From: Clostridia bacterium
GTDB taxonomy: Bacteria; Bacillota; TC1; JBAXCZ01
Direction of reading: 5' to 3'
Assembly: GCA_037141195.1 (NCBI GenBank)
Contig: JBAXCZ010000027.1
Coordinates: forward strand, 1-26,624
Length of the DNA: 26,624 bases
This document shows positions 2,494-18,630 of this stretch, piece by piece. The notes under the pieces were generated by a model. That model saw only the letters and a program-made list of their open reading frames with translations, did no database searches and had not been told where the DNA came from. The position numbers and the translations under genes were made by a program. Every line of letters starts with the position of its first letter. Position 1 is the first letter of the stretch.

Positions 2494-2667
2494 AAGAACT
2501 TAAGCTCTCGGTCGATTCATGAATCGACCCTACAATTTCTAACACACCATCTGTTTCCAATTTCTTCTTAGCGCGATGCACAAAGTGCAGAGCACTCAGC
2601 AGCGGCTATGCCGCGCTCAGCAGTGGAAATGTCACGCTCAGCTACTCTTTTCCTCAGCCAACTGTTT

Positions 2668-5271
2668 TCAATCCCTACTCCTCTTACTCTCTTCCTTCTT
2701 ATTCTGATACATAAAGTCTTCTGCTTGTTTAAAAATATCATTCATGCTTTCACTTTCACGATTTTTTGTGGCATAACCAAAGGCTATGGAAATATCACTT
2801 GCACATACTGATTCTTGAGCTGAGAGCTCTCTAATTCGCTGAATAATCTTCTCCGCTTCAGCTGCACTAGTATTTGGTAAGAGGATAACAAATTCATCAC
2901 CACCAAGTCTGGCGATAATTTCATCAGCACGACATCCTTCATTCAGGATTTTTGCAGCTTTTTGAAGAAGTTCATCACCAGCTCCATGACCAAAATTGTC
3001 ATTAATCAGCTTCAAGCCGTTAACATCCCCCATAATTAAGGTTAAAGGTAGATTACGCTCAGTATCTAGCCTAGCTAGTTCGGCTTCGTAAAACCTCCGA
3101 TTATAAAGCCCTGTTAGCTGGTCATGATAGCTAAGGTAGAGAATTTCTGCTTCTTTGCTTTTTTGAACCGAAACATCCCAGAAAATTAAAACTGCACCGT
3201 TAATGCTCCCGTTGCCTTGTAGAATTGGCATTGCACTCGCTTCAATCAAACACTCGTTTTTATTCTTATCAACTAAAATAATGTCAATTAATCTGTTAGC
3301 TTCTCCCAACGTAAGTGCTTTAGTAACAATACCTTCACACTTTTCTCTTGTTAACTCACTTAGAATATTAAAGACCTCTGCAATTGCTTGTCCTTTTGCT
3401 TCAAATTGTAAAAATCCTGTGAGTTGTTCTGCAATTCTATTGATAAAGGTTATCTTACCATATTCATCAGTAGTTATTACTCCTTCTCCTACTGTCAACA
3501 GGGTGGTTTCTAAAAGATTTTTCTCGTTTGCTAAAGCTATCTCTAAACTTTTGCGTTCGGTAATATCTTCAATCATGCATAAATAGCGAAATCTACTATC
3601 TTCTGAAAACTTCACCTTTTCTACAATCATCTTGACCCAAATCACTTGTCCAGCTTTGCTCAAATACCTTTTATCAAGTTGAAAGCCGTGTATCTCTCCT
3701 GAACTCAGCTGTTCCATGAGCTTAAGCTCTCTTGGTATATCATCAGGATGAGTATAATCTACCCAACTAATGGTTGCTAACTCTTCACTTGTTCTTCCTA
3801 CAATATTTATAAAGCTCTTATTATATCCATAGGTGATTCCAGTATCCATAATAGTAAGTGCAATCCCAAAAGGCGCTTGCTCAAAGATAGTTCTAAAGCG
3901 TTCTTCACTTTCCCGTAGTGCATCCTCATTATGTTTCTCTTCTGTTATATCCTCTAACATGCAAATATGTTGCGGATTTTCCTTTCCTATTGCTTCAAAT
4001 GTTGTAATCCGCCTATTTACCCAAACTATCGAACCATTTGGCTTTAGCATGCGTTTCTGCATGCTATATTCACCACTCTTATTGCCATTGTTAACAAGCA
4101 ATTCCACATTTTCTAAATCTTTCTGCACATCTGCTGGATGTGTTATGCTCATCCAATCTATTTGCTTTAATTCCTCTATGCTCCGTCCTAATATTTCTGC
4201 ATATTTTGGATTGATATCAAGATATGCTCCCGTTACCGAATCACTTAAAGTTATGCCAAAAGGGGCATTGGAAAAAATCGTCTTGAATTTAATTTCACTT
4301 TGCTCAAGCGCTAAGGCACTAGTTGCTATCTCACTTTGTTGTATTAGTAGTTTCTTATTTGCATCACTAAGGTCTGCTGTTCTTTGTTTTACCATTTTAT
4401 TAAGTTGCCTAATTATTAACAGCACAATCAAAATTATAATTATAGCTCCAAGTAAAACCGCGCCTGCTACCATAATAATAGCTTTATTCAATTGTGCTTG
4501 ATTGGTAAAATCTTCACCAAACCACTTATGATAAATAGTTTCATATACTCCATTATCTTTAATCCTAATTAAGCCTGCATTTAGGAGTTTATATACAGTT
4601 TGATTTTCTTTCAGGGTAACTATGGCATATTTTTCCTCATTGAGAGGACTTCCTACAATTTTAATTTTTTCTAGAGCACCTAAATGCTCCGCAAGGTATA
4701 TCCCAACCCATCTTTGCCCAGCAAATGCTACTGCCTTTTTATCTAGTAAAGCAGAAAAAGCTTCTTCTTGGTCTACAATTGGTAAAGAGATGGTTTCAGG
4801 ATATTTTTTTAAACTTTCTTCTGCAATATCTCCCTTTTGATAGCTGACAATGTGACCTTTTAAGTCATCTGGTCCGTTAATACCTTGTGTATCCTTTAAG
4901 ATAAAAATATTTTGCTGATTTACCACTGTTGCTTCTGTAAAAGCATATTTTTTTGCTCTTGCTTCACTAAATGTCATCCCTTGAAGAGCATCAACCTCTT
5001 GATTATCTAAGGCCTCTATAGCCTCACTCCAATGCATAGGCAGAAATTTTATCTCTATCTTCATTTCTTTAGCTATTGCTCGCATAATATCCACATTAAA
5101 CCCTTGATAAGTGCCATCTTCTGATACAAATTCAAAGGGGGGATAGTTTTCATTTCCTGCTAGTTTGATGATTGTAGGTTCTGTTAGAGCCTGAACTGGT
5201 AAGATATTTATGTTAAGGCATAGTGCTACTAAAAATAGTATTATGCAAAATTTACTTTTTTCAGCTTTCAT
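2668..5271 (-). CDS. Sensor diguanylate cyclase, 867 aa. Domain order: signal peptide, two periplasmic solute-binding (SBP_bac_3-like) domains, a transmembrane helix, PAS domains, and a GGDEF domain.
   Basis: ATG with the SD GAGGTG. There is a signal peptide, the periplasmic motif NYPPFEF, and a transmembrane segment AIIMVAGAVLLGAIIIILIVLLII. Three PAS-like segments follow. The GGDEF domain ends in RLGGDEFVILLP. Confidence 0.9.
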   Translation of the reverse strand: MKAEKSKFCIILFLVALCLNINILPVQALTEPTIIKLAGNENYPPFEFVSEDGTYQGFNVDIMRAIAKEMKIEIKFLPMHWSEAIEALDNQEVDALQGMTFSEARAKKYAFTEATVVNQQNIFILKDTQGINGPDDLKGHIVSYQKGDIAEESLKKYPETISLPIVDQEEAFSALLDKKAVAFAGQRWVGIYLAEHLGALEKIKIVGSPLNEEKYAIVTLKENQTVYKLLNAGLIRIKDNGVYETIYHKWFGEDFTNQAQLNKAIIMVAGAVLLGAIIIILIVLLIIRQLNKMVKQRTADLSDANKKLLIQQSEIATSALALEQSEIKFKTIFSNAPFGITLSDSVTGAYLDINPKYAEILGRSIEELKQIDWMSITHPADVQKDLENVELLVNNGNKSGEYSMQKRMLKPNGSIVWVNRRITTFEAIGKENPQHICMLEDITEEKHNEDALRESEERFRTIFEQAPFGIALTIMDTGITYGYNKSFINIVGRTSEELATISWVDYTHPDDIPRELKLMEQLSSGEIHGFQLDKRYLSKAGQVIWVKMIVEKVKFSEDSRFRYLCMIEDITERKSLEIALANEKNLLETTLLTVGEGVITTDEYGKITFINRIAEQLTGFLQFEAKGQAIAEVFNILSELTREKCEGIVTKALTLGEANRLIDIILVDKNKNECLIEASAMPILQGNGSINGAVLIFWDVSVQKSKEAEILYLSYHDQLTGLYNRRFYEAELARLDTERNLPLTLIMGDVNGLKLINDNFGHGAGDELLQKAAKILNEGCRADEIIARLGGDEFVILLPNTSAAEAEKIIQRIRELSAQESVCASDISIAFGYATKNRESESMNDIFKQAEDFMYQNKKEESKRSRD

Positions 5272-5464
5272 CTATACACCTCATTTCATACTATTCCTAA
5301 CATAATTCTCCACAGATTGATATATTCCTGCTTTTAAGGATGAAATAGTATCAATTTACTTTTGCACAATTATTCTAATTTTTTTTGATAATTGACTTGC
5401 CAATATTTTAACACAGAACTTATCTAAAATTTAATTAAATTACCCTGAATTAAATCTCTTTATG

Positions 5465-5505
5465 CAAAAAAAGTTGCTGAAGAGATACTTGTTCTTCAGC
5501 AACTT
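5465..5505 (-). terminator. Rho-independent terminator of the SLH surface-protein gene
   Basis: A 12-bp stem AAGTTGCTGAAG / CTTCAGCAACTT with an 11-nt loop. On the minus strand it is followed by TTTTTTTGCAT. Confidence 0.7.
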
Positions 5506-5586
5506 AGCTAAAAATATTTTGATATAATGCAAATCCACTACTTTTAGCATAAAATCATCTTTTCAATTACAATAAGTATCATATAT

Positions 5587-8500
5587 CTAAATTAAATTAG
5601 CTTTTATTAATAATCTTTGGATTAATACTGTTGCCTCTGCTCTAGTAATGGTTGCTTTTGGTGCTAGTCGAGAAGTGCTCCTACCATAGATGATACCTTG
5701 CTGTATGGCTTTTGCTATATCTTGCCTTGCCCATGCGCTTATCTGCTGAGAATCTTGGAACTTTGCTAAGAGTTCTGCTGCTTCGCTAGTTTGAATCTGA
5801 ACTCTCAAACCAGATAGTTGCATAGCTTTTGCTAATAAGCTGATAGCTTCCTCTCTAGTGATTTTTTTCTGAGGTGCAAATTCATTTTCACCATATCCAC
5901 TAATTAAATTATATGCTGTTGCTGTAGCGATTGCTCCACTATACCAAGCACTTTCTTGTACATCTGCGAAGCTGTTAGTCCCTTGGCTTGTCTTTATTCC
6001 CAAGCCTCTCATCAAGATGGCAGTAAATTCCGCCCTAGTAATTGCTCTGTTAGGCGCAAATTCCTCTTTGCGAATACCTTTAACTACCATCCGTGAACCC
6101 ATGTCATTGATAGCATGCTTTGCCCAATGCTGTGATACATCCTTAAACTCGATTGGATGCCCAACTAATGCATAGATGCTATTGGTTAGACTGTTGATTA
6201 TTGCAAAATTCCCCCAACCTTGGATGACTATTTTTGTAGGTATGTGTCTTACTGTTCCATCCTGCTCTACTAGGATACTTGTAGTAATCTTGGCTGGATC
6301 TATACCTGCGGATAGAGCTATTGTGCGTTCTACATGGCTAGAAAATTCATTGATCAATATTGTTTTATCACCATAGCTACAGCTCACAGAAAATCCTACA
6401 GCAGGCACAAATATTTTAAATGTCCCAAGTCTTGCTGCATTTTCCAAAACTTGCGCTTGCTCTAATGTTGCTTTACTGATTTCAATGGATACTTTAATAT
6501 CTTTTAAGTCAAGGTTTTTTCCTAACTCTGCTGAGATAGCAGATATCTTAATTTGGGATGCTGGCAGTATATAGCTTGCCTCAGGGGTTTGCATTTCTAC
6601 TATTGCCTGTTTGTCTTCAAGGTTTTTAATCAGTTGCCCATTCAACTGGCTTACAACTCGAGTAGAACTTGTGTTAAAGGGAATTTTAACTACTGCTCCC
6701 TCTCCTGCAATTCTTAGTCTTGTTGTTATTTTCTCTTCATCAAGGATGATAGTGGTAGTGCTTTGTCCACCAATATTATCCTCAACCGTTACACCTCCAC
6801 TAAATTCTAATCCATTAACAAGAATGTCAGTATTGGTATAGGTATAATTATAAGTAGCTATTTTTCCTGCTGCTATCTCTAATTCTACCGCGTCACCTGC
6901 ATTATAATTTATTTTAGCTTGATATCTCACAAGGTATGTTCCTGCTGCTAATCCGTTAATTTCTGCTGCCTTTGCTACTTTGTATAGACTTTCAGTTGCA
7001 AGCTTGTATTCCATCTCTGCGGTTGTCCCTGTAATCTTGCCGTCACTTAAACCATAGGAGGTTGTTTTTATACTTTCTAAGCCTATCGGAGCAATCTGCT
7101 CTGCATTATGCACGGTAATACTTACTTCAGCTACTATTGTTGCCATATTATTGTAGCTAATTGTAATGGCTTCAGTATGAGTTCCAGCTGTTAAATTTAC
7201 TTGTGGCTGAATTGTCCAGGTGTTGATACTATCACCGTAGGCTACTTCCATTCCACTACCCCTAAGAATGAAGCTGTCGCCGCTTACCGTTATATTAGTA
7301 ATATTTGCATTAGTATTGCCACTGTTGGTAATTAAGATAGCTTGTAAGCTCGCTTGCTGAGCACCGTAAGTGATAGCTGCAAAACTCGGGGCAGTTATAC
7401 TGAGCGTATAAGTATTGGCAAGCCCAGACGCAATTGTTATTTCAGCATCTTCACCTGCTTTATAACCTGCTTTAGCTTGAAATCTTACCTGATATGTTCC
7501 TGCTGCTAAGTTGTTTAGTACGCTGCCACTTATTGCAGCATAGGTAGCATTACTCAATAATTTATATTCCATTGCACTAGATACACCAATAATTTTGCCA
7601 TCATTTCTACTAGCAACCGTTTCATCTATCTTACTTAAGCTAGGCGCTGTCTGCTCTAGTGCTATTACTTTTTCCGTCGCAGAGCTTGTAACTATCCCAC
7701 TATAGCTAGCTGTTCCCGATGCGATAACCGTGATTGGTTTACCTACGTCTGCGATTTGCACTGTATAGCTCGCCGAGTTTGTTCCTATATTCTCAGTTCC
7801 TGCTTGCCACTTGTAGCTTACTGTAGCTGCCGCTGGGGTCAGTGTGCCTGCAGTAAGTTTTCCTCCCACAATAGCAACTCCTGAAATTGCTCCAATTTCC
7901 GTAAGAGCAATTGTCCATGCATCTCCACTACGGGAGTATGTATTGGCTTTAGCTGCTCCATAGATTGTTATGAAGTTTGGTGTCGCCGTAGCACTGACAA
8001 AAGCACCTGTTCCAATTGTAGTTGCATTATTCTCCATGGTTACGCGAGCTAAACTGGTACAACCTAAAAAGGCACGCCTGATAATCGTGGAAATATTTAT
8101 TGGTATGGTAATATCTGTTAAACTTGTGCAATTTAAAAATATTCTATCTTCTAATGTTGTTAGACTAGTGCTTAAGACCACACTAACTAAGCTATTACAT
8201 CCATCGAAAGCTTGGATACCAATACTAGTGATACTGTTTGGCAGAGTAATACTAGTAATACTTGTACAAAATTGAAAAGCTCCAGCATCAATAATTTTTA
8301 CTGGAACTCCAGCTAAGGTTGCCGGTATGACTACGTCAGTTGCATTGCCATAGTATTTAATAATCATCGCACTACTTAAATTGCTAGAATAGTAATATGG
8401 AAAAGGATCTATTGTTATGTATGCGATTGCACCTGCATTATAGCCCTCTTTTGCCTGATACCTAACTTGGTAGCTTCCTGCTGCTAAACCACTAATAGTT

Positions 8501-8733
8501 GTTGATGCTGCCGTGGTAAAATTGTCAGCTGTTGATAACTTATATTCCATTGCAGTTGTTGTACCAATTATCTTGCCATTGGTGCTATCATAGTTTGTTG
8601 GGGAAACTGCAACGATACCTGTGGGAGCTGCTTGCTCTAAATTTTCAAACAGATTATAAGCTGCGAAAATTGTGCTAGATAAAAAAGTTATGATCATTAC
8701 ATTCACCAATATTAATCTCATTACTCTTATCAT
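5587..8733 (-). CDS. Large cell-surface protein, 1048 aa. Domain order: signal peptide, three ~70-aa internal repeats, BspA-type leucine-rich repeats, Ig-like regions, and three C-terminal SLH domains.
   Basis: ATG with the SD AGGAG. The signal peptide is MRLILVNVMIITFLSSTIFAA. The motif NGKIIG..AMEYKL....GLAAG.YQVR.QAK.GY.AG recurs three times. The leucine-rich-repeat segment reads ...ITSITLPNSITSIGIQAFDGCNSLVSV.... The C terminus has three SLH motifs (FKDVSQHWAKHAINDM..., FADVQESAWYSGAIATA..., FQDSQQISAWARQDIAKA...). Confidence 0.85.
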   Translation of the reverse strand: MIRVMRLILVNVMIITFLSSTIFAAYNLFENLEQAAPTGIVAVSPTNYDSTNGKIIGTTTAMEYKLSTADNFTTAASTTISGLAAGSYQVRYQAKEGYNAGAIAYITIDPFPYYYSSNLSSAMIIKYYGNATDVVIPATLAGVPVKIIDAGAFQFCTSITSITLPNSITSIGIQAFDGCNSLVSVVLSTSLTTLEDRIFLNCTSLTDITIPINISTIIRRAFLGCTSLARVTMENNATTIGTGAFVSATATPNFITIYGAAKANTYSRSGDAWTIALTEIGAISGVAIVGGKLTAGTLTPAAATVSYKWQAGTENIGTNSASYTVQIADVGKPITVIASGTASYSGIVTSSATEKVIALEQTAPSLSKIDETVASRNDGKIIGVSSAMEYKLLSNATYAAISGSVLNNLAAGTYQVRFQAKAGYKAGEDAEITIASGLANTYTLSITAPSFAAITYGAQQASLQAILITNSGNTNANITNITVSGDSFILRGSGMEVAYGDSINTWTIQPQVNLTAGTHTEAITISYNNMATIVAEVSITVHNAEQIAPIGLESIKTTSYGLSDGKITGTTAEMEYKLATESLYKVAKAAEINGLAAGTYLVRYQAKINYNAGDAVELEIAAGKIATYNYTYTNTDILVNGLEFSGGVTVEDNIGGQSTTTIILDEEKITTRLRIAGEGAVVKIPFNTSSTRVVSQLNGQLIKNLEDKQAIVEMQTPEASYILPASQIKISAISAELGKNLDLKDIKVSIEISKATLEQAQVLENAARLGTFKIFVPAVGFSVSCSYGDKTILINEFSSHVERTIALSAGIDPAKITTSILVEQDGTVRHIPTKIVIQGWGNFAIINSLTNSIYALVGHPIEFKDVSQHWAKHAINDMGSRMVVKGIRKEEFAPNRAITRAEFTAILMRGLGIKTSQGTNSFADVQESAWYSGAIATATAYNLISGYGENEFAPQKKITREEAISLLAKAMQLSGLRVQIQTSEAAELLAKFQDSQQISAWARQDIAKAIQQGIIYGRSTSRLAPKATITRAEATVLIQRLLIKANLI

Positions 8734-8822: not shown

Positions 8823-9185
8823 TTACCCATGATTTATGCTCAATCTTGCTAGCATAATTTCTATTTTTTCAGCTTCAAAGGGCAAGAGTAAAAAACCATC
8901 TGCTTCACATTCAAATGCTTCTATTGCATAGGAGCCTTGATTGCTGATAAAGATTACCTTGACTGTTGGATTTAGCCCTCGTAGCTTTGCAGCAAGACTA
9001 AAAGCATTGATTTCAATTTTTCCCATTCTAATCAGTGCCAGACTAGTTGGTACTTCTCGTATGCTTTCTTCAGCAGCTTTTTGTGTAGTGAAAATTCCTT
9101 GACATGACAAGTCTAAATACTTATCTAATATTGTTTTTAGTTCTATTCCATTTTTTCTATCCGGATCTGCAATGAAATATTGCAT
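8823..9185 (-). CDS. Degenerate stand-alone receiver domain (pseudo-receiver), 120 aa
   Basis: It has the REC fold signature (...VKVIFISNQGSYAIEAFECEADGFLLLPF...). The phospho-acceptor position reads LALIRMGK, so Asp is replaced by Arg. The conserved Lys is replaced by Leu (GFLLLPF versus DYLxKPF). ATG start with the SD GGAGG. Confidence 0.7.
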   Translation of the reverse strand: MQYFIADPDRKNGIELKTILDKYLDLSCQGIFTTQKAAEESIREVPTSLALIRMGKIEINAFSLAAKLRGLNPTVKVIFISNQGSYAIEAFECEADGFLLLPFEAEKIEIMLARLSINHG

Positions 9186-9221
9186 AGAGCATAAGCCTCC
9201 TTAAACTTCTCCCTTCATTAT

Positions 9222-9232
9222 ACACCACTAAA
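9222..9232 (-). promoter_or_regulatory. Extended -10 element (TGgTGTATAAT on the minus strand) upstream of the pseudo-receiver gene
   Basis: The minus-strand sequence is tagtgGTGTATAATgaagggagaag, about 35 nt upstream of the SD and ATG at 9185. Confidence 0.3.
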
Positions 9233-9344
9233 CCTAAATAGACCCTAAATGGAATAAGCTTGGCTAGTTTTATATATCCTCTATAGCTCAAACTAGAAGT
9301 GTTTGTTAGCAAATACTGAAACTGTTTCAAGTATATAATATCAT

Positions 9345-10223
9345 TTACTTTTGGTATCTATCGGTAACTTGAAGATTATCCAACACTTCTTGACATTCTA
9401 TAGTAAGCTCCGCTGCTCGTGGATAAGACCATTCATAACCATTTTCCTCTAAATACCCCTGTTGGAGCAATTTTTCTAAAAGTGTAGAATCATCTCTCCT
9501 TCTAAAATTTTTATTCCTTAATTGCTCTTCTAATTGATAGATATCACATTTAATCTGCTCTTGTACGATACGATAATTTCCACGACTGTTTTCTAAAATG
9601 AAGGAGAAACCAATATCTGCTAATTTTTTTCTTAGTAAATAAGTAGTTGCATGAAAATTAGCATGTGCTTTTTCAGCATTATATTCTGGCCAAACTGCAT
9701 CTGCAATCTGCTCCCAATTTAAGGGTATTCCTTTTTTATGTACTAGAAAAGCTAGTACTTCCTTCGCCTTCGAATTCTTCCAGCTAAGCGCTTTCCCGTT
9801 AATGTACATTTCAAAACTTCCTATACATTGCATATATGGTAGAGTTGTTTTTTCTAAGATACTTCTAGGTCTTAGTAATCTTCTTAATATTTTTTCTAGT
9901 CTTTCCAATATTATTGGTTTCATCAGATAATCTACTGCTTGCACATCAAAAGCTTCTACAGCATATTGATTAAAGGCCGTAACAAAAACAATTTCCATCT
10001 TTTCATCTAACTCTAGCAGCTCTTGTGCAAGCTGCAAACCATTTATGCCTGGCATTTCAATATCTAAAAAAACAGCATCAAGCTGTTCTTCACTTAAAAA
10101 ATCTAAAAGCTGTTCCCCAGTTTCAAATAATCCACAAAGTTCTACATCTTTTATTTTTTCCACCATACGAGCAAATCTCTCTAAAACATGCTTTTCATCA
10201 TCTACGGCGGCAATTCTTAGCAT
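9345..10223 (-). CDS. Response regulator with a receiver, an OmpR/SARP-type winged-helix DNA-binding domain and a short BTAD-like C-terminal extension, 292 aa
   Basis: ATG with a strong SD (GAAGGAGGA), 2 bp after the stop of the upstream kinase. The receiver is canonical (VDDE, FLDIEMPG, VTA, DYLMKP). The C-terminal ...EVLAFLVHKKGIPLNWEQIADAVWPE...TTYLLRKKL... matches the trans_reg_C fold. The tail RRDDSTLLEKLLQQGYLEE...EW is BTAD-like. Confidence 0.85.
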   Translation of the reverse strand: MLRIAAVDDEKHVLERFARMVEKIKDVELCGLFETGEQLLDFLSEEQLDAVFLDIEMPGINGLQLAQELLELDEKMEIVFVTAFNQYAVEAFDVQAVDYLMKPIILERLEKILRRLLRPRSILEKTTLPYMQCIGSFEMYINGKALSWKNSKAKEVLAFLVHKKGIPLNWEQIADAVWPEYNAEKAHANFHATTYLLRKKLADIGFSFILENSRGNYRIVQEQIKCDIYQLEEQLRNKNFRRRDDSTLLEKLLQQGYLEENGYEWSYPRAAELTIECQEVLDNLQVTDRYQK

Positions 10224-10225
10224 GT

Positions 10226-12916
10226 TTATTTTTCCTCCTTCGCAAATAATATTTTTACACAGGTACCTATACCTAGCTCGCTACTAATTGCAAGATAGTT
10301 CCCATATAATCTCTGAAGTCGATTATTTATATTAACAATGCCTACCCCTTTTTCTATCCTATCCTCTGAAAAAATTGTTGCCAGCTTTTCCACATTCATG
10401 CCAATACCATCATCTCTAATCTCTATTTCCAAGTTTCCATCGCTCTGCACGATACTCAAATAAACGGTTCCACCATCCAATTTTTTTGAAATTCCATGAC
10501 GAACTGCATTTTCGACTAAGGGTTGAAGCATCAATACTGGAAGTTGATAGCTTAAAGGTATCTCAATTTTTTTTACTAGTTTAATTTTATTACCAAAGCG
10601 TGCCTCTTCAATATGAAAATATGTATCTACAAATTCTAATTCTTTTTCTAAGCTAACCATTTTATCTAGATTGTTGAACTCTAGACTACCTCTTAAATAT
10701 ACTGCTAAATCAAGAATTAATTTGCTTGCTTTGCTACCATCCTTTTCACAAATATTGGCAATAGCATTTAGGGCATTATAAAGGAAATGTGGCTTAATTT
10801 GAGCTTGCAGAAAAGCTGTTTCAGTTTCCATAATTTTATCCTTCAGTTTAGCTGACTCTTTTAATAGTTGTTCTTCGATAATTCGTTTTTTTACATTAAC
10901 CAGCATCTGGGCAAAGATTACCAATAATTCCTTCTCCCGCTCGGTATATGCATGCATGCTTTTCACAGCATCAAAACCTACAAAACCTATTAAAATACCC
11001 TCACTAAGCATTGGAACTGTTATCAAGCTCTTGATTCCTTGGGGTTCAAGTACTTCTCTTAAGCCTCCCATCTCATCTTTGGGTAACAAGCTAACATCAT
11101 CCACATAAAAAGCCTCTCCTAATACATGCTTTTCTACCCATTGAGAAACGACTTTTAATGAAATATTTTGCAGGTTCATCTTTTCAGCATTGATGCCATC
11201 TCTACACCATTCATAGGTGTTAGAGGTAGTATCTTTTATAAAATCATATTCGAAAATATATGATCTATCAGCCCCCACAAATTCTGCTATCTCTTGCAGT
11301 GACTTTTCCATGGTATTTCCAAATTCCGACAAATCTATATTGATGTAGACAGATGATATTTTTAGGATTAAATCTTGCATCTTGGAATAATATTCAATTT
11401 GTTCTTCTTGCTTTTTCTTAGCTGTGATATCTCTCATAATTCCATCAACTCTAATGGGGTGTTGATTAATGTCGAAAATTAGCTTCAGCCTTTCATCAAT
11501 CCAAATTATTTCCCCATCAGCTCTAATAATTCTAAATTCTAATTGAGAATCACCCAATTTTTCCAACGCTTCTAAATTTTTTTCCACGCTCTTTCTATCC
11601 TCAGGATAAATTAATTCAATCCACTTAAAGGTTTTTTCATTTATAACTTTATCTTCCAGACCATATAAAGCTTGCACCGATGGACTAATATATAATCTTT
11701 CCAAACTTGGCCATACAGCAGACCACACTACATCGCGCATATTACTCATGATGCTACTAAACTTCTCCTCTGTCTTAAACAATTCTCCTTCGATTTTTCG
11801 GATATCTGTTATGTCATTCATCACTGTCAAATAAGACTGTTCTAGCTGATTGTCAATCATTTCTCCAGAAAAAAGACCATCTAAGATTCCTCCATCTTTT
11901 TTCCTAGCTTGCAGTTCAAAGTTTGTTAATTTACCTACTTGTTGAAGAACCTTCTGAGCCTCTGCCTGCTTTGAATTTTCAATGAATAGACCAAGCTCTA
12001 TACTTGTTTTTCCAATGACCTCTTCCTTTGTATAACCTAGCTTTTTTAAAAATGTTGAGTTAACATCTGTAAACTTATCGTTTTGCATATTTGTTAATGC
12101 CATTAATGCTGGGTTATTATCAAATATTTTTTGAAATTTATCAAAAGCTGCCTGTTGCAAGGTTAAATCTTTGGAAATGCCAAAAATGCAGTCCATCCCA
12201 TCCCATTTACCAAACCATACTCTCGTTTCCACTGATAAAAAGCTTTTATCTTTTCTACCAAGTGGCAAGGGACAAGTGCTTCGCTTGCCTGCAAACATAT
12301 CTCCAAAAATCTGTTCTGCCTCAGCTCTTTTTTCTGCTGGATGCACATCGAGAATATGCATGCCGATTAGCTCTTCCATCTTATATCCCAGCTTAGTAAT
12401 TGCCGCTGTATTGGCATAGATAATTCTGCCTTCTGGATTACCAACTAGGAAGATATCATCTACAGTTTCAAAAAATGTGCGAAAGTTAGCTTCACTCTCT
12501 TTTAACTTATTTTCGACATTTCTATGCTCGCTAATATCTTCGAAAAGATAGAAACGCCCAAAGTAATCATCGTCATCTCCGCGCATTTGAGTAGAAAATC
12601 TGCGTATTGTTCTTCCATCTAAAAAAGGGATATAATCTTCAATCGTAATACGATTTTCTTCACTTTGTAATGGCTTACAAGATTCAGCAAAGGCTGGCAC
12701 ATCTGCTAAAACAGCCAGACAGTCTGGTAAAATCTGATTATTTGTCAGTTCTCCCCTTTGCATTTTTGCTTCTAAGTGTGTTATTCCCCAGATTTCACAA
12801 AACTTATGATTAAAATGCAAAATCTCATCGGTGCGATTGTCCACCACTAAAAGGGCAAGTGTAGAGATGCTCGACATCAATTTTAAAAATAATTCATTTT
12901 CTATTTTTTTACTCAT
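10226..12916 (-). CDS. Cytoplasmic sensor histidine kinase: a PAS x4-GAF sensor fused to a LytS/YehU-type transmitter (His_kinase PF06580 plus HATPase_c), about 897 aa
   Basis: There are no transmembrane segments. The GAF segment contains IAEFVGADRSYIFEYDF. The transmitter has LQAQIKPHFLYNALNAIANIC, the PF06580 signature. The ATPase has ENAVRHG...DDGIGM. The ORF-track start at 12988 is a TTG extension. I place the start at ATG 12916 (MSKKIENELFLK), which aligns with the paralog's N-terminus and has a GGAG upstream. Confidence 0.85.
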   Translation of the reverse strand: MSKKIENELFLKLMSSISTLALLVVDNRTDEILHFNHKFCEIWGITHLEAKMQRGELTNNQILPDCLAVLADVPAFAESCKPLQSEENRITIEDYIPFLDGRTIRRFSTQMRGDDDDYFGRFYLFEDISEHRNVENKLKESEANFRTFFETVDDIFLVGNPEGRIIYANTAAITKLGYKMEELIGMHILDVHPAEKRAEAEQIFGDMFAGKRSTCPLPLGRKDKSFLSVETRVWFGKWDGMDCIFGISKDLTLQQAAFDKFQKIFDNNPALMALTNMQNDKFTDVNSTFLKKLGYTKEEVIGKTSIELGLFIENSKQAEAQKVLQQVGKLTNFELQARKKDGGILDGLFSGEMIDNQLEQSYLTVMNDITDIRKIEGELFKTEEKFSSIMSNMRDVVWSAVWPSLERLYISPSVQALYGLEDKVINEKTFKWIELIYPEDRKSVEKNLEALEKLGDSQLEFRIIRADGEIIWIDERLKLIFDINQHPIRVDGIMRDITAKKKQEEQIEYYSKMQDLILKISSVYINIDLSEFGNTMEKSLQEIAEFVGADRSYIFEYDFIKDTTSNTYEWCRDGINAEKMNLQNISLKVVSQWVEKHVLGEAFYVDDVSLLPKDEMGGLREVLEPQGIKSLITVPMLSEGILIGFVGFDAVKSMHAYTEREKELLVIFAQMLVNVKKRIIEEQLLKESAKLKDKIMETETAFLQAQIKPHFLYNALNAIANICEKDGSKASKLILDLAVYLRGSLEFNNLDKMVSLEKELEFVDTYFHIEEARFGNKIKLVKKIEIPLSYQLPVLMLQPLVENAVRHGISKKLDGGTVYLSIVQSDGNLEIEIRDDGIGMNVEKLATIFSEDRIEKGVGIVNINNRLQRLYGNYLAISSELGIGTCVKILFAKEEK
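10886..12902. repeat. About 2.0 kb segmental duplication, copy A. It encodes the sensor module of the LytS-type kinase. Copy B is at 16330-18344.
   Basis: Direct DNA alignment holds across the span at an offset near 5442 bp with small indels. The segment 10891-10935 reads tttttttacattaaccagcatctgggcaaagattaccaataattcc. The segment 16331-16378 reads ttttttcacattaaccagcatctgcgcaaagattactaataattcc. The proteins are about 85% identical from IENELFLK to LVNVKKRI. Confidence 0.75.
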
Positions 12917-13256
12917 TTTCTTCTTTTCTCCTTCTATTTTCAAGCGCTTTAACCTCCGAAGCTTAGCTAAATGTGAATCTCTCCGCAAGTTGATGTACTG
13001 TTAGAACAATCCTCATAAATCACTATACTTGCTTTTGATAATATGTTCTCAGCTTATAGGCTTCTTAAAATAAAATAACCCGTAGCTGGAAAATACAGTG
13101 TTATTCATATATTAGGATGCTGCAATATTTGTCTCTGAACTATTATTACTGTCAGGTGATTTTGGTAAACAAGCTATCCAGAAATTCAACTTTATAAATC
13201 ATATTCTATGCTAAATAACTCACTGTCACAATATTTTTTTAGTTCTATTATAAACA

Positions 13257-13302
13257 AAACAGCTAGGCTTATGCAGTTAATTATGCCTAAGACTAGCTGT
13301 TT
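13257..13302 (-). terminator. Candidate terminator hairpin downstream of the HD-GYP regulator gene
   Basis: A 10-bp stem AAACAGCTAG / CTAGCTGTTT encloses a structured 26-nt loop with an inner TAGGC/GCCTA stem. It lies 43 bp past the stop at 13345. The flanks are only moderately U-rich. Confidence 0.35.
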
Positions 13303-13344
13303 ATTTTAAATTTAAAGTTCATTAATCTCTTAGCTATTGTTAAA

Positions 13345-14433
13345 TTATTCATTATACATTGCGATAAATTCTTGCTCACAAGCTAAAAAACCTTCTACCA
13401 CAGTAGGATCAAAGTGACTTCCGCTATCTTTTATAATAATATTTCTGCTAATTTCATGGCTAAGAGCTTCTTTATATGGCCTTTTTGTTCTAATAGCATC
13501 ATAGGCATCAGCGAGCGCAACGATGCGAGCTGCTATTGGGATAGCTTCGCCTGCTAATCCATCGGGATATCCTTTACCATTCCATTTTTCGTGATGAGAA
13601 CGTGCTATTTCAAAACCCGTCTTAGTAAATTTGTTTTGTGGGTATTTATCAACAACCTCACTAAGAGTTTTTTCTCCTATTAATGTGTGCTTTTTAATCT
13701 CTTCAAATTCTGTATCTGTTAATTTACCAGGCTTTAAGAGAATACTATCTTTAATTCCCACTTTACCAATATCATGCAGAAGGCTTGCTTTCTCAATAAC
13801 ACTAATAACTTCAGCTGTTAAGATATTTTTATACTCAGCCTTTTTACTTAACTCTGCAGCCAATAACCTGCAACCATTCTGAACCCGTTCTAGATGACCA
13901 CCAGTGTCATCATCCCTAGATTCTGCAAGCTTAGCCAATGCATAGATGGTAGCCATTTGCGCATCAATTACCTCTTCGGTTCGTTCATCTAACTTTATAC
14001 TCAAAGATTTATTTGCCTCAGCTAACTGTTGTTGCAAATTATGGAGATTTAATTGAGTGTTTATCCTTGCTCTGACCTCTTCACATTGAAAAGGTTTTGT
14101 AATATAATCTACCCCACCAAGCTCAAATGCCTTCACTTTATCAAAAGCTTCTCCTAAAGCGCTTACAAAAATTATAGGTATATTTTTTAATTTAGCATCA
14201 CCCTTGATGCGTTTGCATACCTCATAGCCACCCATACCAGGCATGATTACATCTAATAAAACTAAATCAGGCAGTATCTTTGCATCAGATAATAGTTGCA
14301 AAGCTTTTTCACCATTTAAGGCAATTTGACAAATACAATTCACCGGCAAGATGCTTCCCAAGACATCTATTTCTTCTGGGCTGTCATCCACAATTAATAT
14401 TTTTACATTTTTTACTTCAATCGAATTTTTCAA
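13345..14433 (-). CDS. Response regulator with a receiver domain and an HD-GYP c-di-GMP phosphodiesterase domain, 362 aa
   Basis: TTG start with the SD GAGGAG, which overlaps the 3' end of the upstream hybrid kinase. The receiver has ILIVDD..., LLDVIMPGMGGY..., DYITKPF. The HD-GYP domain has LHDIGKVGI...HHEKWNGKGYP. Confidence 0.9.
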   Translation of the reverse strand: MKNSIEVKNVKILIVDDSPEEIDVLGSILPVNCICQIALNGEKALQLLSDAKILPDLVLLDVIMPGMGGYEVCKRIKGDAKLKNIPIIFVSALGEAFDKVKAFELGGVDYITKPFQCEEVRARINTQLNLHNLQQQLAEANKSLSIKLDERTEEVIDAQMATIYALAKLAESRDDDTGGHLERVQNGCRLLAAELSKKAEYKNILTAEVISVIEKASLLHDIGKVGIKDSILLKPGKLTDTEFEEIKKHTLIGEKTLSEVVDKYPQNKFTKTGFEIARSHHEKWNGKGYPDGLAGEAIPIAARIVALADAYDAIRTKRPYKEALSHEISRNIIIKDSGSHFDPTVVEGFLACEQEFIAMYNE

Positions 14434-14449
14434 AGTTTTCTCCTCTGTT

Positions 14450-17400
14450 TTAATCTAATTCTTTTAAGATTTGTAAAGCGGCTTCAAATCTATAGTCGTC
14501 TAAACAGGCTTTTATATCTAAAAATTTTTCATTGGAATTTAAGCATTCAGTTTGCCTCAGAATTCCCTCTAAACAATTCACTGAGGCCATATCATTTTCC
14601 TGTAATAAAAGTGCAAGTTCTTTTTTAAGTGAGCTAATACTCGAGAAATCAGCTATTCCTATAGGATTTCCTTTAGCAACTAACTTTCTATCGTTCAAGT
14701 TACCAAGTGCATTAAATGCCTCTAATAGCGCTTCATCTAAATCGTCTGTTAAAACATTTAACTCAGCTAACTGCTTATTTTTCAGAGCATTTTCTAGTGC
14801 TATAGCACTTTTAACTACCTTCTCCGCCGCAATGTGTCCCGCTACACCCTTTACTGTATGTACAAGCCTCTCAGCTATTTCTAACTTGCCACAGCTTAAA
14901 GCTTTCTTGATATCTACTATAGTGCTATATTGATTTTTATGAAATTTTCTTAAGATTTTTTTTAAAAGCTCTTCATTATATTCTAAACTCGAAAGTGCTT
15001 TGAGATAATCAATCCCCGCAGGCTCTAATACTTTAACTATCTCGCGCGTTAATTCATCTAACACTATTTTTTCTTCTATGGGGTGATATTCTACAAATTC
15101 TTCAGCTACTGCCAATACATTCGGAATCGAACTGTGCTTGTGCCACAATGCCATTTTATTAAAAAGTACCACTGTAGTAATTGGCTTACTGATAAAATCG
15201 TTGATTCCTGCCTCAAGACATTTTTCTTTCTCATCTAAAAATGAGCTGGCTGATACTGCAATGATTGGTAAATCTTCAAAGCTCCTGAATTTTCTTATTT
15301 CCTTTGTGGCTTGATATCCATCCATATCAGGCATTCTAATATCCATTAATACCATATCATAATTTTTCTTCTTAATATAGGCAACTGCTGCTGCACCACT
15401 ATGTGTCATAGTCACTTTAATTTTTGCTAAATGCAGTATTTCAAAAAGTACATCCTGATTAAGCTCGTTATCCTCAACTACTAAAACATGCATACCCTCT
15501 AATTGCTCTATTATTTCTCGTCTTGGAGCTTTGAAAATGAACTGATTATTTGGTTCAAGAATTCCGTAATTTTTATTGATATGATTAAAACAAGCCGTAA
15601 AGAAAAAAGTGCTTCCACTGCCTATTTCACTCTGGAACCATATTTCACCTCCGAATAGCTCAACATATTTTTTAGTTATGGCAAGGCCTAAACCTGTTCC
15701 ACTATAGCTTCTACTATTTTCAGTGTCTACTTGATAGAATGGTTCAAATATATGTTTCCCTACTTCCTCCTCAATCCCAATTCCTGTATCTCTAATAGAA
15801 AAGTGCAGTCTAAGATAATCTTTACAATTTTCTGCCACTTTTACCCTAACTACAACTTCACCTTTATTGGTATACTTTACCGCATTACTTAACAAATTTG
15901 CTAAAATTTGTTGTAACCGTATGCTATCTCCAATAAGATTTGATGGCACATTTTCCTCAATATTTATGAGTATTTTTAGCCCCTTTAGCTCAATAATTTG
16001 CTGCAAGAGATTCGCAGCAGCATCTAAGCTTGCTCTTAGGTTAAATCGTTCTGTACGCAAGATTACATTTTTAGATTCAATTTTATCTAAATCCAGAATA
16101 TCATTGATTATTGCTAACAAAAGCTTCGATGAACTTTTGATTTTATCTAAATAATCATGTTGCTTCTCTGTTAAGGTAAAGTTATTGAGCAATTCTACAT
16201 AGGCAATTAATCCATTAATTGGCGTACGAATTTCATGGCTCATATTGGACAAAAATTGAGTTTTGATATTATTTGCTCTGATTGCCTCCTCATTAGCCAA
16301 GTGTAAACTTTGCTCGGTGTTAATCCGTTTTTTCACATTAACCAGCATCTGCGCAAAGATTACTAATAATTCCTTCTCCTTATCAGTGTAAAAATGTTTG
16401 CTTTTCACAGCATCAAAACCTACAAACCCTATTAAAATACCGTCGCTAAGCATTGGAACTGTTATCAAGCTCTTGATACCTTGAGGTTCAAGTACCTCTC
16501 TTAAGCCTCCAATACCATCTTGGGGTAGCAAACTAACATCGTCTACATAAAAAGCTTCTCCTAGTGCATGCTTTTCTACCCATTGAGGAATAGCAACTAA
16601 CGGAATATTTTGTAAATTCATAATTTCAGCATTGATGCTTTCACTACACCATTCATGTGTGTTAGAGGTAGTGTTTTTTACAAAGTCATAGTCGAAAATA
16701 TATGATCTGTCTGCCCCTACAAATTCTGCTAGCTCTTGCAGTGATTCTTCTAAGATATTTTCGAATTCTGACAAATCTATATTGATGTAGACAGATGATA
16801 TTTTTAAGATTAAGTCTTGCATCGTTGAATAATATTCAATTTGCTCATCTTGCTTTTTCTTAGCCGTAATATCCCGAATAATTCCATCAACCCTAATCGG
16901 CTGTTTATTCCGATCATAAATCAGCTTCATTCGTTCATCGACCCAAATTATTTCCCCATTGGCTCTAATAATTCTAAATTCATGTTGAGAATTCCCCAAT
17001 TCTTCTAGAGTTGCTAACTTGTTTGACAAACTCTGTTTATCCTCTGGATGAATAAATTCATTCCAGTTGAAGGTATTTTTATTAACTACACACTCATCTA
17101 CTCCGAACAAGTCTTTTGCTGATGGACTAACATAAAAATTTTCCAAGCTAGGCCAAGCAGAAGACCAGACAAAATCCAGCATATTATTCATAATACTGCT
17201 AAAATTCTCCTCTGTTTTGACCAAGTCTCTTTCGATTTTTCTAATTTCAGTTATGTCATTCATTACTGTTAAATAAGATTGCTCTAGCTGATTGTCGATT
17301 ATCTCACCAGAAAAAAGACCATCTATAATTCCTCCGTCTTTTTTCTTCGCTTGTAATTCAAAATTTATTAATTTTCCTTCTTGTAGTAGTACATTAAGCG

Positions 17401-18385
17401 CTTCACCCTGTTTTTCATTTTCAATAAATAGACCAATTTCTGTGCTAGTTTTACCAATGACCTCTTCTTTTGTATATCCCAGATTATTTAAAAAAGTTGA
17501 GTTAACATCTGTAAATTTCTTATCCAGCAAATTTGTTACTGCCATCAATGCTGGATTATTATCAAAGATTTTTTGAAATTTATCAAATGCTGCCTGTTGC
17601 AAGGTCAAATCTTTGGAAATGCCAAAAATGCAGTCCATCCCGTCCCATTTGCCAAACCACACTCTAGTCTCTACAGGTAAATAGCTTTTATCTTTTCTGC
17701 CAAGGGGCAAGGGGCAAGAGCTTCTCTTACCTGCAAACATATCACCAAAAATTACCTCTGCTTCCGCTCTTTTTTCTGCTGGATGTACGTCGAGAATATG
17801 CATACCGATTAGTTCTTCTAAAGTATAACCCAGCTTAGCAAGTGCTGCAGCATTCGCATAAATAATTTTACCTTCTGGGCTGCCAACTAGGAAGATATCA
17901 TCCACGGTTTCAAAGAATGTGCGAAAGTTGGCTTCGCTTTCTCTTAATTTTGCTTCTACATTTTTTTGCTGGCTGATATCTTCGAAAAGGTAGAAACGCC
18001 CAAAGTAAGCATCGTTCTCTCCACGTATTTGGGTAGAGAATCTGCGAATTGTCCTTCCATCTAAAAAAGGAATATAATCTTCAATTGTAATACGATTTTC
18101 TTCACTTTGTAATGGCTTACAAGATTCAGCAAAAGCTGGTACATCTGCTAAAACAGCCAGACAGTCTGGTATAATCTGATTATTTGTAAGTTCTCCCCTT
18201 TGCATTTGTGCTTCTAAGTGTGTTATTCCCCAGATTTCGCAAAACTTATGATTAAAATGCAAAATCTCATCGGTGCGATTATCTACAACAAAAAAAGCAA
18301 ACGGCGAGGTTTTAGTCATCATTTTTAAAAATAATTCATTTTCAATACCCTTATTAACTATTTTTCCTTCTTTATCAATATTCAT
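14450..18385 (-). CDS. Cytoplasmic hybrid sensor histidine kinase with a PAS x4-GAF sensor, HisKA, HATPase_c, a receiver and an HPt domain, 1311 aa
   Basis: ATG with the SD GGAGG. The H-box is MSHEIRTPINGL. The ATPase has DTGIGI...GTGLGLAI. The receiver has VLVVEDNELNQ...LMDIRMPDMDGY...ISKPI. The HPt motif is LVHTVKGVAGHIAAEK. The N-terminal ~690 aa are paralogous to 10226-12916. Confidence 0.9.
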   Translation of the reverse strand: MNIDKEGKIVNKGIENELFLKMMTKTSPFAFFVVDNRTDEILHFNHKFCEIWGITHLEAQMQRGELTNNQIIPDCLAVLADVPAFAESCKPLQSEENRITIEDYIPFLDGRTIRRFSTQIRGENDAYFGRFYLFEDISQQKNVEAKLRESEANFRTFFETVDDIFLVGSPEGKIIYANAAALAKLGYTLEELIGMHILDVHPAEKRAEAEVIFGDMFAGKRSSCPLPLGRKDKSYLPVETRVWFGKWDGMDCIFGISKDLTLQQAAFDKFQKIFDNNPALMAVTNLLDKKFTDVNSTFLNNLGYTKEEVIGKTSTEIGLFIENEKQGEALNVLLQEGKLINFELQAKKKDGGIIDGLFSGEIIDNQLEQSYLTVMNDITEIRKIERDLVKTEENFSSIMNNMLDFVWSSAWPSLENFYVSPSAKDLFGVDECVVNKNTFNWNEFIHPEDKQSLSNKLATLEELGNSQHEFRIIRANGEIIWVDERMKLIYDRNKQPIRVDGIIRDITAKKKQDEQIEYYSTMQDLILKISSVYINIDLSEFENILEESLQELAEFVGADRSYIFDYDFVKNTTSNTHEWCSESINAEIMNLQNIPLVAIPQWVEKHALGEAFYVDDVSLLPQDGIGGLREVLEPQGIKSLITVPMLSDGILIGFVGFDAVKSKHFYTDKEKELLVIFAQMLVNVKKRINTEQSLHLANEEAIRANNIKTQFLSNMSHEIRTPINGLIAYVELLNNFTLTEKQHDYLDKIKSSSKLLLAIINDILDLDKIESKNVILRTERFNLRASLDAAANLLQQIIELKGLKILINIEENVPSNLIGDSIRLQQILANLLSNAVKYTNKGEVVVRVKVAENCKDYLRLHFSIRDTGIGIEEEVGKHIFEPFYQVDTENSRSYSGTGLGLAITKKYVELFGGEIWFQSEIGSGSTFFFTACFNHINKNYGILEPNNQFIFKAPRREIIEQLEGMHVLVVEDNELNQDVLFEILHLAKIKVTMTHSGAAAVAYIKKKNYDMVLMDIRMPDMDGYQATKEIRKFRSFEDLPIIAVSASSFLDEKEKCLEAGINDFISKPITTVVLFNKMALWHKHSSIPNVLAVAEEFVEYHPIEEKIVLDELTREIVKVLEPAGIDYLKALSSLEYNEELLKKILRKFHKNQYSTIVDIKKALSCGKLEIAERLVHTVKGVAGHIAAEKVVKSAIALENALKNKQLAELNVLTDDLDEALLEAFNALGNLNDRKLVAKGNPIGIADFSSISSLKKELALLLQENDMASVNCLEGILRQTECLNSNEKFLDIKACLDDYRFEAALQILKELD
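16330..18344. repeat. About 2.0 kb segmental duplication, copy B. It encodes the sensor module of the hybrid kinase.
   Basis: See copy A (10886-12902). The duplication ends exactly at the linker before the kinase core (LVNVKKRI), after which the two genes diverge completely. Confidence 0.75.
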
Positions 18386-18630
18386 TAGGCCTTAACCTCC
18401 ATTTAATAAATAATTGTGTAACACTCCACTTTATAGGCTACATTTATTTTTTTTTATCTTTAGTTTTATAAAAGTATTGAAAAATAAAAAACTGCCCAAG
18501 TATTTTCGGTTACGCTACTAGCTCGCATAGGGGAAAGCGTCCAAATACTCCGCCCATGGTCATCACTCAAATTCTCTAACAGTTATTGTAACTTTACTTC
18601 TATTTATTGCTATTGTCAATTAAATTCATT

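Follow-up and report, generated by a model that had tools for sequence, protein, structure and literature searches.

We analyzed a stretch of 26,624 nt from a Clostridia bacterium (GenBank assembly GCA_037141195.1, contig JBAXCZ010000027.1, positions 1 to 26,624), hereafter the window, in which two histidine kinase genes, here called gene A and gene B, share a sensor module of four PAS domains and one GAF domain (PAS1-4/GAF) and end in transmitters of two different kinase classes. The best explanation of the whole arrangement, which we regard as probable, is that a copy of the gene B sensor was transplanted onto a cassette with a PF06580-type kinase, giving two kinases with paralogous sensors and insulated outputs. 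Gene A would most likely be a chimera, in which this copy replaced the seven-transmembrane (7TM) sensor of the cassette kinase. All the relevant genes are on the minus strand and are transcribed in the order B, HD-GYP, A, regulator, receiver-like protein, SLH-LRR protein and SBP-PAS-GGDEF protein. The parts needed first are these:

14450..18385 (-): gene B, soluble hybrid histidine kinase of 1311 amino acids (aa), from its open reading frame (ORF) and Pfam; NCBI MEI7885365.1
16321..18400 (-): sensor copy in B, with Shine-Dalgarno sequence, start codon, PAS1-4 and GAF, from pairwise alignment with A
10226..12916 (-): gene A, soluble PAS1-4/GAF/PF06580 His_kinase/HATPase_c kinase, 896 aa from the ATG at 12916, from its ORF and Pfam
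10879..12957 (-): sensor copy in A, 2.08 kb, from alignment with the B copy
10855..10885 (-): junction of the putative chimera, A codons ~678-687, KKRI-IEEQLLK, from a three-way codon comparison
13344-12917: intergenic gap of 428 nt 5′ of gene A

A sensor module shared by kinases of two classes

BLASTN of gene A against gene B gave one alignment, 10879-12926 against 16321-18373, of 2053 nt with 83.8% identity and two gap openings. Identity in sliding windows was 70-98% inside the repeat and about 40%, the background level, on both flanks. The longest identical run between the copies was 47 nt. The two copies are direct and separated by 3.4 kb, and a repeat finder (3′ end) gave a start-to-start offset of 5442. 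An earlier note on this DNA had described a duplicated PAS x4-GAF module of about 2 kb in direct repeats 3.4 kb apart. The module was borne out by BLASTN and Pfam and the layout by the alignment. Its coordinates were right to within 7-30 nt, with the homology reaching a little further 5′, and its identities (85-90% for DNA, about 85% for protein) were slightly high compared with the measured 83.8% and 81%.

The repeat includes the signals for translation initiation. The Shine-Dalgarno sequence of gene B, GGAGGTTAA at 18400-18390, is homologous to A positions 12957-12947, and the B start codon (ATG at 18385) is the positional homologue of an in-frame TTG at 12943 in A, with a 1-nt indel in the spacer between Shine-Dalgarno sequence and start. 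With the ribosome-binding site and start codon, the whole repeat extends over 12957-10879 in A and 18400-16321 in B (2.08 kb). Gene A may start at this TTG, which is preceded by GGAGG 9 nt upstream and would give a protein of 905 aa, instead of at the annotated ATG at 12916.

The two sensors were 81% identical over their common 679 residues and 78% identical over a BLASTP alignment of 723 residues. When the segments were scanned singly, PAS (PAS1), PAS, PAS, PAS_3 and GAF were all recovered, the PAS1 match being weak (PAS_8, 23.8 bits against a cut-off of 21.8). No transmembrane (TM)-like segment was found in protein A or B; the top Kyte-Doolittle 19-mer score was 1.69, inside GAF.

The transmitter of gene A is made up of the C-terminal 217 residues. 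Pfam recognized PF06580 His_kinase there at 83.9-85 bits (cut-off 25.2) over profile positions 2-81 of 81, and HATPase_c at 47.9-50.9 bits (cut-off 26.4), with conserved LVENAVRHG, DDGxG and GVG. The phospho-His is in QIKPHFLYN and was invariant in an alignment with seven members of the 7TM-PF06580 family. Both parts of a PF06580-class kinase are therefore present, the phospho-acceptor domain with its His and the HATPase_c domain with N and G boxes. In gene B, HisKA (PF00512, 75 bits), HATPase_c (104.3), REC (95.6) and Hpt (32.4) all exceeded their gathering scores (26.9, 26.4, 30.2 and 24.6, respectively). Its translation contains the H-box SHEIRTP and the HPt motif HTVKG, and its receiver has the acidic pocket, Asp, Ser and Lys.

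The earlier note had claimed two different kinase classes. We checked whether Pfam put both C-termini in the same transmitter family, and it did not. The label "LytS/YehU-type" given to A was correct for the PF06580 part but too narrow, as this transmitter falls in the 7TMR-DISM-linked subgroup of PF06580 and its presumed regulator is not of the LytTR type.

Gene A is most likely a chimera

The similarity between A and B stops, as had been noticed before, in the linker preceding the kinase core. This happens at A codons 679-687, and the phospho-His lies about 25-30 residues further on. Compared codon by codon, A agrees with B as far as ...NVKKRI (codon 679), and from about codon 685-687 onward it agrees with the 7TM family. 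At the DNA level, the similarity of A to B ends at 10879, and the similarity of the window to donor-type loci, which runs from the regulator gene through the transmitter, ends at 10859 (locus L014), 10846 (L015), 10858 (L047) and 10849 (L048). Both parents have AAA-AAR (Lys-Lys) microhomology in register at the junction, and A retains the spacing between Lys-Lys and phospho-His of the candidate-donor family. In an AlphaFold model of GAF and transmitter, used for helix continuity only, one continuous helix ran from the end of GAF through the junction to before the H-box (fragment residues 155-200, A aa 659-704). Signal transfer through a continuous helical linker is plausible on this model.

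The transmitter of A is 60-70% identical to those of short kinases (~350-650 aa) with a 7TMR-DISM_7TM membrane domain. Among its ~38 closest relatives (55-70% identity), all that have N-terminal sequence carry TM segments or 7TMR-DISM_7TM. The transmitters of native soluble PAS/GAF-PF06580 kinases were only 42-44% identical to that of A. The next gene has the same affinity: in L014, L015 and L047, a 7TM kinase is followed by a regulator of 287-288 aa, 59-63% identical over its full length to the 292-aa regulator downstream of A, and in L014 and L015 a giant surface protein follows the regulator. Because the sensor of A matches B, its transmitter and regulator match the 7TM cassette, and the similarities switch at the junction, we regard gene A as most probably a chimera. 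No significant remnant of 7TM-coding sequence was found anywhere in the window, including the gap upstream of A (best E = 0.2).

Some of these relatives have unusual gene structures. In L015, at 5016-6930, the 7TMR-DISM_7TM part (317 aa) and the PF06580 part (309 aa) were called as two adjacent genes, and in L047 the break in the kinase lies between His_kinase and HATPase_c. Frameshifts in the assemblies could account for these cases, as could natural gene splits around the same linker. Three proteins (P0326, P0328 and P0340) carry two tandem kinases each, in the order 7TMR-DISM_7TM - HisKA - HATPase_c - REC - PF06580 His_kinase - HATPase_c, and many REC-PF06580 kinases were seen among the relatives of the A transmitter. 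Their architectures suggest that the PF06580 transmitter is often driven by a phosphorylated receiver.

Selection and exchange between the sensor copies

Nonsynonymous (dN) and synonymous (dS) divergence between the copies was estimated by the Nei-Gojobori method. Over the whole module dS was 0.68, dN 0.10 and dN/dS 0.15. The values by domain were as follows:

PAS1: 85% aa identity, dN/dS 0.20
PAS2: 90% aa identity, dN/dS 0.07
PAS3: 81% aa identity, dN/dS 0.10
PAS4: 66% aa identity, dN/dS 0.17
GAF: 83% aa identity, dN/dS 0.18

Both copies are intact and under purifying selection and are not decaying. The dS of 0.68 indicates that the duplication is old and the pair long stable. Exchange between the copies left a possible sign in one place only:

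12647..12838 (-), B counterpart 18089-18280: low-dS tract, A aa 27-90, from windowed identity and a synonymous-site test

Over these roughly 190 nt the identity of the copies is 95-98%, and dS is 0.09 for aa 32-72. Only four synonymous differences were found in 60 codons for identical residues, a result equalled in 14 of 5000 permutations; this 60-codon window was the significant one of four sizes tried. In two further tests for gene conversion, the longest run of silent-identical codons did not reach significance (4238 of 5000 permutations) and the longest run of identical nucleotides was marginal (83 of 2000). The tract is a candidate gene-conversion patch; constraint at the nucleotide level is the alternative candidate.

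The earlier note had concluded that one sensor is wired to two outputs. The two outputs stand; that the sensor is still a single one is an interpretation, as 19% of its residues differ and PAS4 is only 66% identical. The sensors could have the origin proposed above and yet have diverged to different cues, so that the kinases head two separate pathways. PAS4, with the highest dN of the five domains (0.185), and the long separate history implied by dS would fit such a divergence. So would the placement of A and B in different transcription units, with a riboswitch candidate only at B (see below), and the survey finding that kinases duplicated recently mostly have different expression and different sensory domains (Alm et al., PMC1630713). 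The selection data speak for retention of a common function: no domain has a dN/dS outside the range 0.07-0.20, identity is 81-90% for PAS1-3 and GAF, and an unbroken stretch of forty residues in PAS2/PAS3 has dN 0. The candidate gene-conversion tract also suggests continuing homogenisation. We consider divergence to different cues rather improbable, although it is the strongest of the alternatives.

Source of the sensor copy and direction of transfer

The sensor of A might instead derive from a related organism, through horizontal transfer of part of a B-like gene, and have come to lie next to B secondarily. For a duplication that took place locally, a dS of 0.68 is high, and the module does appear to move between lineages, since related PAS modules with 50-64% identity occur in assemblies of Bacteroidota, Verrucomicrobiota, Eubacteriales and Bdellovibrionales. 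The two copies are, however, each other's closest relatives, with 81% identity against at most ~56% for other sequences over comparable lengths. The distance between these direct copies is 3.4 kb, the A copy contains the B ribosome-binding site and start codon in register, and the low-dS tract is consistent with gene conversion over a long period in the same genome. An origin by horizontal transfer is thus unlikely.

The direction of transfer is indicated by the relatives of both halves. The outputs attached to the best 120 sensor homologues were HisKA hybrids, GGDEF, HD-GYP, GerE or HWE (at least five types), and none of these 120 had a PF06580 output. Gene B is colinear with the outgroup kinase P0009 from PAS2 via GAF, HisKA and HATPase to REC (39.5% over 970 aa), and also with P0019, P0020, P0017 and P0075 from GAF to REC, the five outgroups being 35-39% identical to B. 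This colinearity across the GAF/HisKA boundary makes B the likely ancestral context of the sensor. The reverse, an older gene A from which B took its sensor, would draw on two facts. GAF-PF06580 is the canonical arrangement in LytS/BtsS proteins, and native soluble PAS-GAF-PF06580 and GAF-PF06580 kinases (P0263 and P0297) share the GAF subfamily of A (ADRSY...EWC). The A transmitter is nevertheless closer to membrane 7TM kinases (55-70%) than to the soluble ones (42-44%), and its regulator and promoter box are common to 7TM cassettes. Together with the colinearity of B and the lack of PF06580 among the best 120 sensor matches, these facts make the reverse direction very unlikely.

Integrity of the assembly and recombination

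The GAF/PF06580 junction is also spanned, at 99.97-100% identity, in four assemblies made from other samples or runs (ERZ4223250, SRR12676973, ERZ4201038 and SRR12676970); this independent support comes from contigs L049 and L051-L053. Another contig with the same arrangement, L001, was rejected as independent because it is 100% identical to the window and thus the same contig. Some contigs end inside gene A, and two Logan contigs (L051 and L053) both end at 11033, inside a 32-nt run identical in both copies. Because these contigs match the window exactly, their ends are explained as assembler breaks at the repeat, and we rejected them as recombination variants, the ends at 11033 being within a k-mer common to both copies. 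In L049, with 3.4x coverage, a 1-nt indel at 446-554 (window ~10660-10770) breaks gene A up into two ORFs, which reflects either an error in sequencing or a rare allele with a frameshift. That the arrangement is an artefact, through chimeric assembly or decay of one copy into a pseudogene, is hardly credible in spite of the metagenome source, the contig breaks inside A and the L049 indel, as four assemblies span the junction, the two Logan contigs break at a shared k-mer, and neither ORF is disrupted in the window, dN/dS being 0.15 and the catalytic motifs conserved.

It had also been proposed that the repeats are a substrate for recombination. As direct repeats they formally are, and unequal crossing-over between them would delete 5,442 bp and leave a hybrid with a B 5′ part and an A 3′ part behind the B leader. 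The longest identical run is only 47 nt, however, and dS is 0.68; an identity of 84% is expected to cut the frequency of homeologous recombination strongly. No deletion, hybrid or recombinant variants were seen across the five assemblies, which contained one haplotype only.

The A branch: regulator, promoter box and target genes

Downstream of gene A lie the following features:

9345..10223 (-): 292-aa response regulator, presumed partner of A, from Pfam REC
9217..9250 (-): predicted regulator-box promoter, from a pattern kept across four loci
8823..9185 (-): 120-aa receiver-like protein (pseudo-receiver), from a receiver alignment
5587..8733 (-): SLH-LRR (BspA-type) surface protein of 1048 aa, from Pfam SLH x3 and LRR_5

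The stop codon of A and the start of the regulator gene are 2 nt apart. The receiver of the regulator (Pfam REC, 81.5 bits) has intact acceptor residues; its best match was MrkE, and its NCBIfam matches were BtsR/LytR receivers. BtsR and LytR pair with PF06580 kinases. No LytTR domain was matched in the 292-aa regulator. Its phmmer alignments to the PrrA, DrrD and PhoP structures run full-length, through the DNA-binding domains, and its output appears to be a divergent OmpR-type winged helix, scoring 20-22 bits with Trans_reg_C against a cut-off of 26.2.

Four independent loci share the direct repeat ATTTAGGGT-N2-ATTYAGGKT immediately downstream of the regulator gene, with a TATAAT-like box 6-8 nt on. 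The exact pattern occurs once per locus at the homologous place (window 9249-9233, L014 8043-8059, L015 7907-7923, L047 2075-2091). In the window it reads ATTTAGGGT-CT-ATTTAGGTT, with 11-bp phasing, and TATAAT follows 8 nt later. The number of matches expected by chance in the window is 0.23, even with two mismatches allowed. OmpR-type activator sites usually consist of a direct repeat at about -35, and the box is probably the regulator binding site and promoter of the next gene. A second match, with two mismatches, was found at 2518-2534 (-) upstream of MarR, FMN-binding and flavodoxin genes. It is probably due to chance (two matches were obtained in 2 of 100 shuffles).

The box is followed first by the pseudo-receiver gene and then by the gene for the SLH-LRR surface protein. 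In an alignment of six receivers, the phospho-acceptor Asp of the 120-aa protein was replaced by Arg and the conserved Lys by Leu, and its Pfam REC score (28 bits) was below the cut-off of 30.2. The pseudo-receiver gene is absent from the candidate-donor loci L014, L015 and L047. With giant surface proteins after the same regulator in L014 and L015, the SLH-LRR surface protein is the likely target of the A branch.

The B branch: HD-GYP protein, terminator and riboswitch candidate

Gene B is associated with the following features:

13345..14433 (-): REC-HD-GYP response regulator of 362 aa, from Pfam Response_reg and HD_5/HD
13252..13300 (-): intrinsic terminator at the end of the B/HD-GYP unit, from folding against shuffles
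18495..18579 (-): candidate cyclic di-GMP (c-di-GMP)-II riboswitch aptamer in the gene B leader, from the RF01786 covariance model

The HD-GYP gene starts 16 nt downstream of B. Its product has HD at 220, HHEKWNGKGYP at 280-290 (the HHExxxGxGYP motif is intact) and an intact receiver with acceptor Asp, Thr/Ser and Lys. It is presumed to be a c-di-GMP phosphodiesterase from these motifs; the best NCBIfam match was to a NosR-family REC c-di-GMP phosphodiesterase, below the cut-off. Both genes are upstream of a single terminator (13300-13252), a hairpin followed by UUUUGUUU with a folding energy of -22 kcal/mol (z = -4.4, none of 200 shuffles as stable). The terminator separates the B/HD-GYP unit from the A unit. 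Consensus scans of the window for promoters and terminators gave no more sites than shuffled sequence (44 against 40.1 expected) and missed the real terminator hairpin, which has an interrupted stem.

Upstream of B, RF01786 matched 18579-18495 over the full model (1-84) with 44 bits, below the Rfam gathering score of 53.5, and E = 1.1e-6 for the whole window. At gathering thresholds Rfam gave nothing in the window, so that the candidate appears only at a permissive setting; in the upstream region of A, the permissive search gave chance-level matches only. Most of the conserved core nucleotides are kept. Columns 40-43 pair with 68-65 in the consensus (GCAC/GUGC) and also here (ACGC/GCGU), with two double changes. 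As we interpret the consensus and the published structure, these columns, in the internal loop and the 3′ strand, form the pseudoknot. Four pairs of the P1 stem are non-standard. Just upstream of the candidate, at 18619-18591, is TTGACA-17-TAAAGT, the best promoter-like site of this strand, and a U-run comes after the aptamer. It is outside the duplicated segment, and A has no counterpart. The riboswitch is a candidate for gating the B/HD-GYP operon.

A further gene for c-di-GMP metabolism was observed downstream:

2668-5271 (-): SBP-PAS-GGDEF protein of 867 aa

It encodes a fusion of a periplasmic solute-binding SBP_bac_3 domain with three PAS domains and a diguanylate cyclase of the GGDEF family. 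With this gene, the HD-GYP gene and the riboswitch candidate, the stretch is a cluster of c-di-GMP signalling genes.

Comparison with known systems

The B branch resembles RpfC/RpfG of Xanthomonas campestris. Gene B has the HisKA-HATPase-REC-HPt layout and adjoins a REC-HD-GYP gene with intact HD and GYP motifs. In RpfC/RpfG, a His-Asp-His-Asp relay activates c-di-GMP hydrolysis, and the rpf operon also holds RpfH, a separate protein similar to the RpfC sensory input domain (PMC3749722). RpfH is thus a precedent for a spare sensor copy beside such a kinase/HD-GYP pair. The systems differ in that RpfC senses the diffusible signal factor (DSF) via a membrane input domain, while B is soluble with four PAS domains and GAF. 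RpfH has no kinase and no known role, whereas the spare sensor in the window is attached to a full kinase belonging to a different class. No RpfC or RpfG model was among the listed best NCBIfam matches; the best matches for B were of BarA/TorS/NahK type, all below cut-offs. The likeness is an analogy of wiring, not orthology.

Gene A resembles LytS, BtsS/YehU, YpdA, YesM and the 7TMR-DISM-linked kinases in its complete PF06580 and HATPase_c domains, and its partner has a BtsR/LytR-like receiver. It differs in that Pfam found no 5TMR-LYT or 7TM domain in A, so that the membrane domain of LytS/BtsS(YehU)/YpdA is lacking, and in that the output of its partner is a putative divergent OmpR-type winged helix, not LytTR or AraC. 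More similar in architecture are P0263 (569 aa; PAS-GAF-His_kinase-HATPase_c) and P0297 (531 aa; GAF-His_kinase-HATPase_c). In an exhaustive profile-free search, they matched A through GAF and transmitter in one stretch with 36-39% identity. The PAS-GAF-PF06580 architecture itself is therefore not new, and soluble examples exist. Kinases of this type differ from A in having one PAS domain or none and a linker shorter by 6 residues. This difference, the net of a 7-residue gap and a 1-residue insertion, offers no clear argument based on heptads. Because their transmitters are only 42-44% identical to that of A, they form a separate, older lineage and are not the source of A.

Domain shuffling that accompanies the duplication of histidine kinases is a general and documented process. 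In a survey of such kinases, only 29% of recently duplicated kinases retained the upstream domain set of their closest paralogue, and the mechanism rearranging individual domains was called unclear (Alm, Huang and Arkin 2006, PMC1630713). That survey was anchored on the kinase, with sensors that change, whereas here the sensor is duplicated and the kinase class differs. The riboswitch candidate resembles c-di-GMP-II riboswitches (RF01786) in lying in the 5′ leader of a c-di-GMP-turnover operon of a Clostridia genome.

Other observations in the window

The NCBI entries for the window proteins are MEI7885359-MEI7885367 ("MAG: Clostridia bacterium"). An exact database look-up of protein A gave no record, though gene A is called on the contig. 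A near-perfect hairpin at 797-863 (stem ~28 bp), just downstream of a flavodoxin-like gene (915-1412, -), may be a bidirectional terminator. It scored against several microRNA precursor models on both strands, and we rejected these family assignments as spurious in a bacterium.

Discussion

The explanation that we favour can be put as a series of steps. A 2.08-kb 5′ copy of B, with ribosome-binding site, start codon, PAS1-4 and GAF, would have replaced the 7TM sensor of a PF06580 cassette, in which a kinase and a REC-winged-helix regulator were accompanied by a surface-protein gene under a promoter dependent on the regulator. The join would fall within the helical linker, some 25-30 residues N-terminal to the phospho-His, with the candidate-donor spacing from Lys-Lys to His kept. 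Kinase B, expressed from an operon with a separate terminator, a candidate c-di-GMP-II riboswitch leader and presumably a separate promoter, would autophosphorylate on the HisKA His and pass the phosphate to its own REC, then to HPt and then to the adjoining REC-HD-GYP protein, altering c-di-GMP hydrolysis. Kinase A would autophosphorylate on the PF06580 His (KPHFLYN) and phosphorylate the 292-aa regulator. This regulator would bind the 11-bp-phased repeat at about -35 (9250-9217) and activate the pseudo-receiver and SLH-LRR genes. The phosphotransfer partners are proposed from adjacency, co-inheritance and receiver class. Beyond what the earlier note contained are the putative origin of A as a derived chimera, the proposed source of its transmitter, the riboswitch candidate and the predicted target promoter of the regulator.

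Several observations weigh against this explanation. The ancestral 7TM state at the locus is deduced from relatives whose DNA is 67-71% identical, and no close orthologue was found in the GTDB genomes and JGI metagenome contigs scanned with sensor peptides (best 56-64% on parts). The GAF-PF06580 junction may be old, given the soluble kinases with the same GAF subfamily (P0263, P0297). In the AlphaFold model the predicted local distance difference test score (pLDDT) was 43-64 for the linker and 64 on average, with GAF poor. In the A branch, besides the low Trans_reg_C score, a C-terminal extension of ~75 aa in the regulator is without assignment, promoter-like sites are no commoner than in shuffled sequence, and the scan did not locate a promoter of A itself. 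In the B branch, the riboswitch candidate is below its gathering score, and folding of its region showed no clear terminator or anti-terminator. The difference between the sensors at 19% of residues, and at 34% in PAS4, weighs on the idea that both respond to the same cue.

One cue probably controls both the second messenger and the surface-protein promoter. The fuller picture would be a class-crossing transplant maintained by selection, in which one PAS4-GAF module drives a HisKA and a PF06580 four-helix bundle through a linker spliced at the Lys-Lys microhomology, one intracellular cue sets c-di-GMP and surface-protein transcription, gene conversion keeps the copies alike, and the riboswitch gates B. 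We put this forward only tentatively, as less likely than not. In a candidate further step, the sensor modules of A and B would heterodimerise and the kinases regulate each other directly.

All the parts come from known families and the process is well documented, so that this is not a new kind of system. The modularity of histidine kinase sensors is known mostly from broad surveys and engineered chimeras; to our knowledge, natural sensor swaps in which the parents, junction and partner genes can be read at the nucleotide level are uncommon. What is uncommon here is the resolution, with both parents, the splice point, the co-inherited regulator and the promoter, together with a swap across kinase classes. 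The two genes form a testable pair in which a PAS4-GAF input is set on two structurally different phospho-acceptor domains, which bears on signalling through helical linkers and on what makes a splice point workable, and so is of use for the design of synthetic sensors. For the bacterium, the arrangement suggests that c-di-GMP hydrolysis and the transcription of an S-layer-anchored LRR surface protein may be coupled to one cue.

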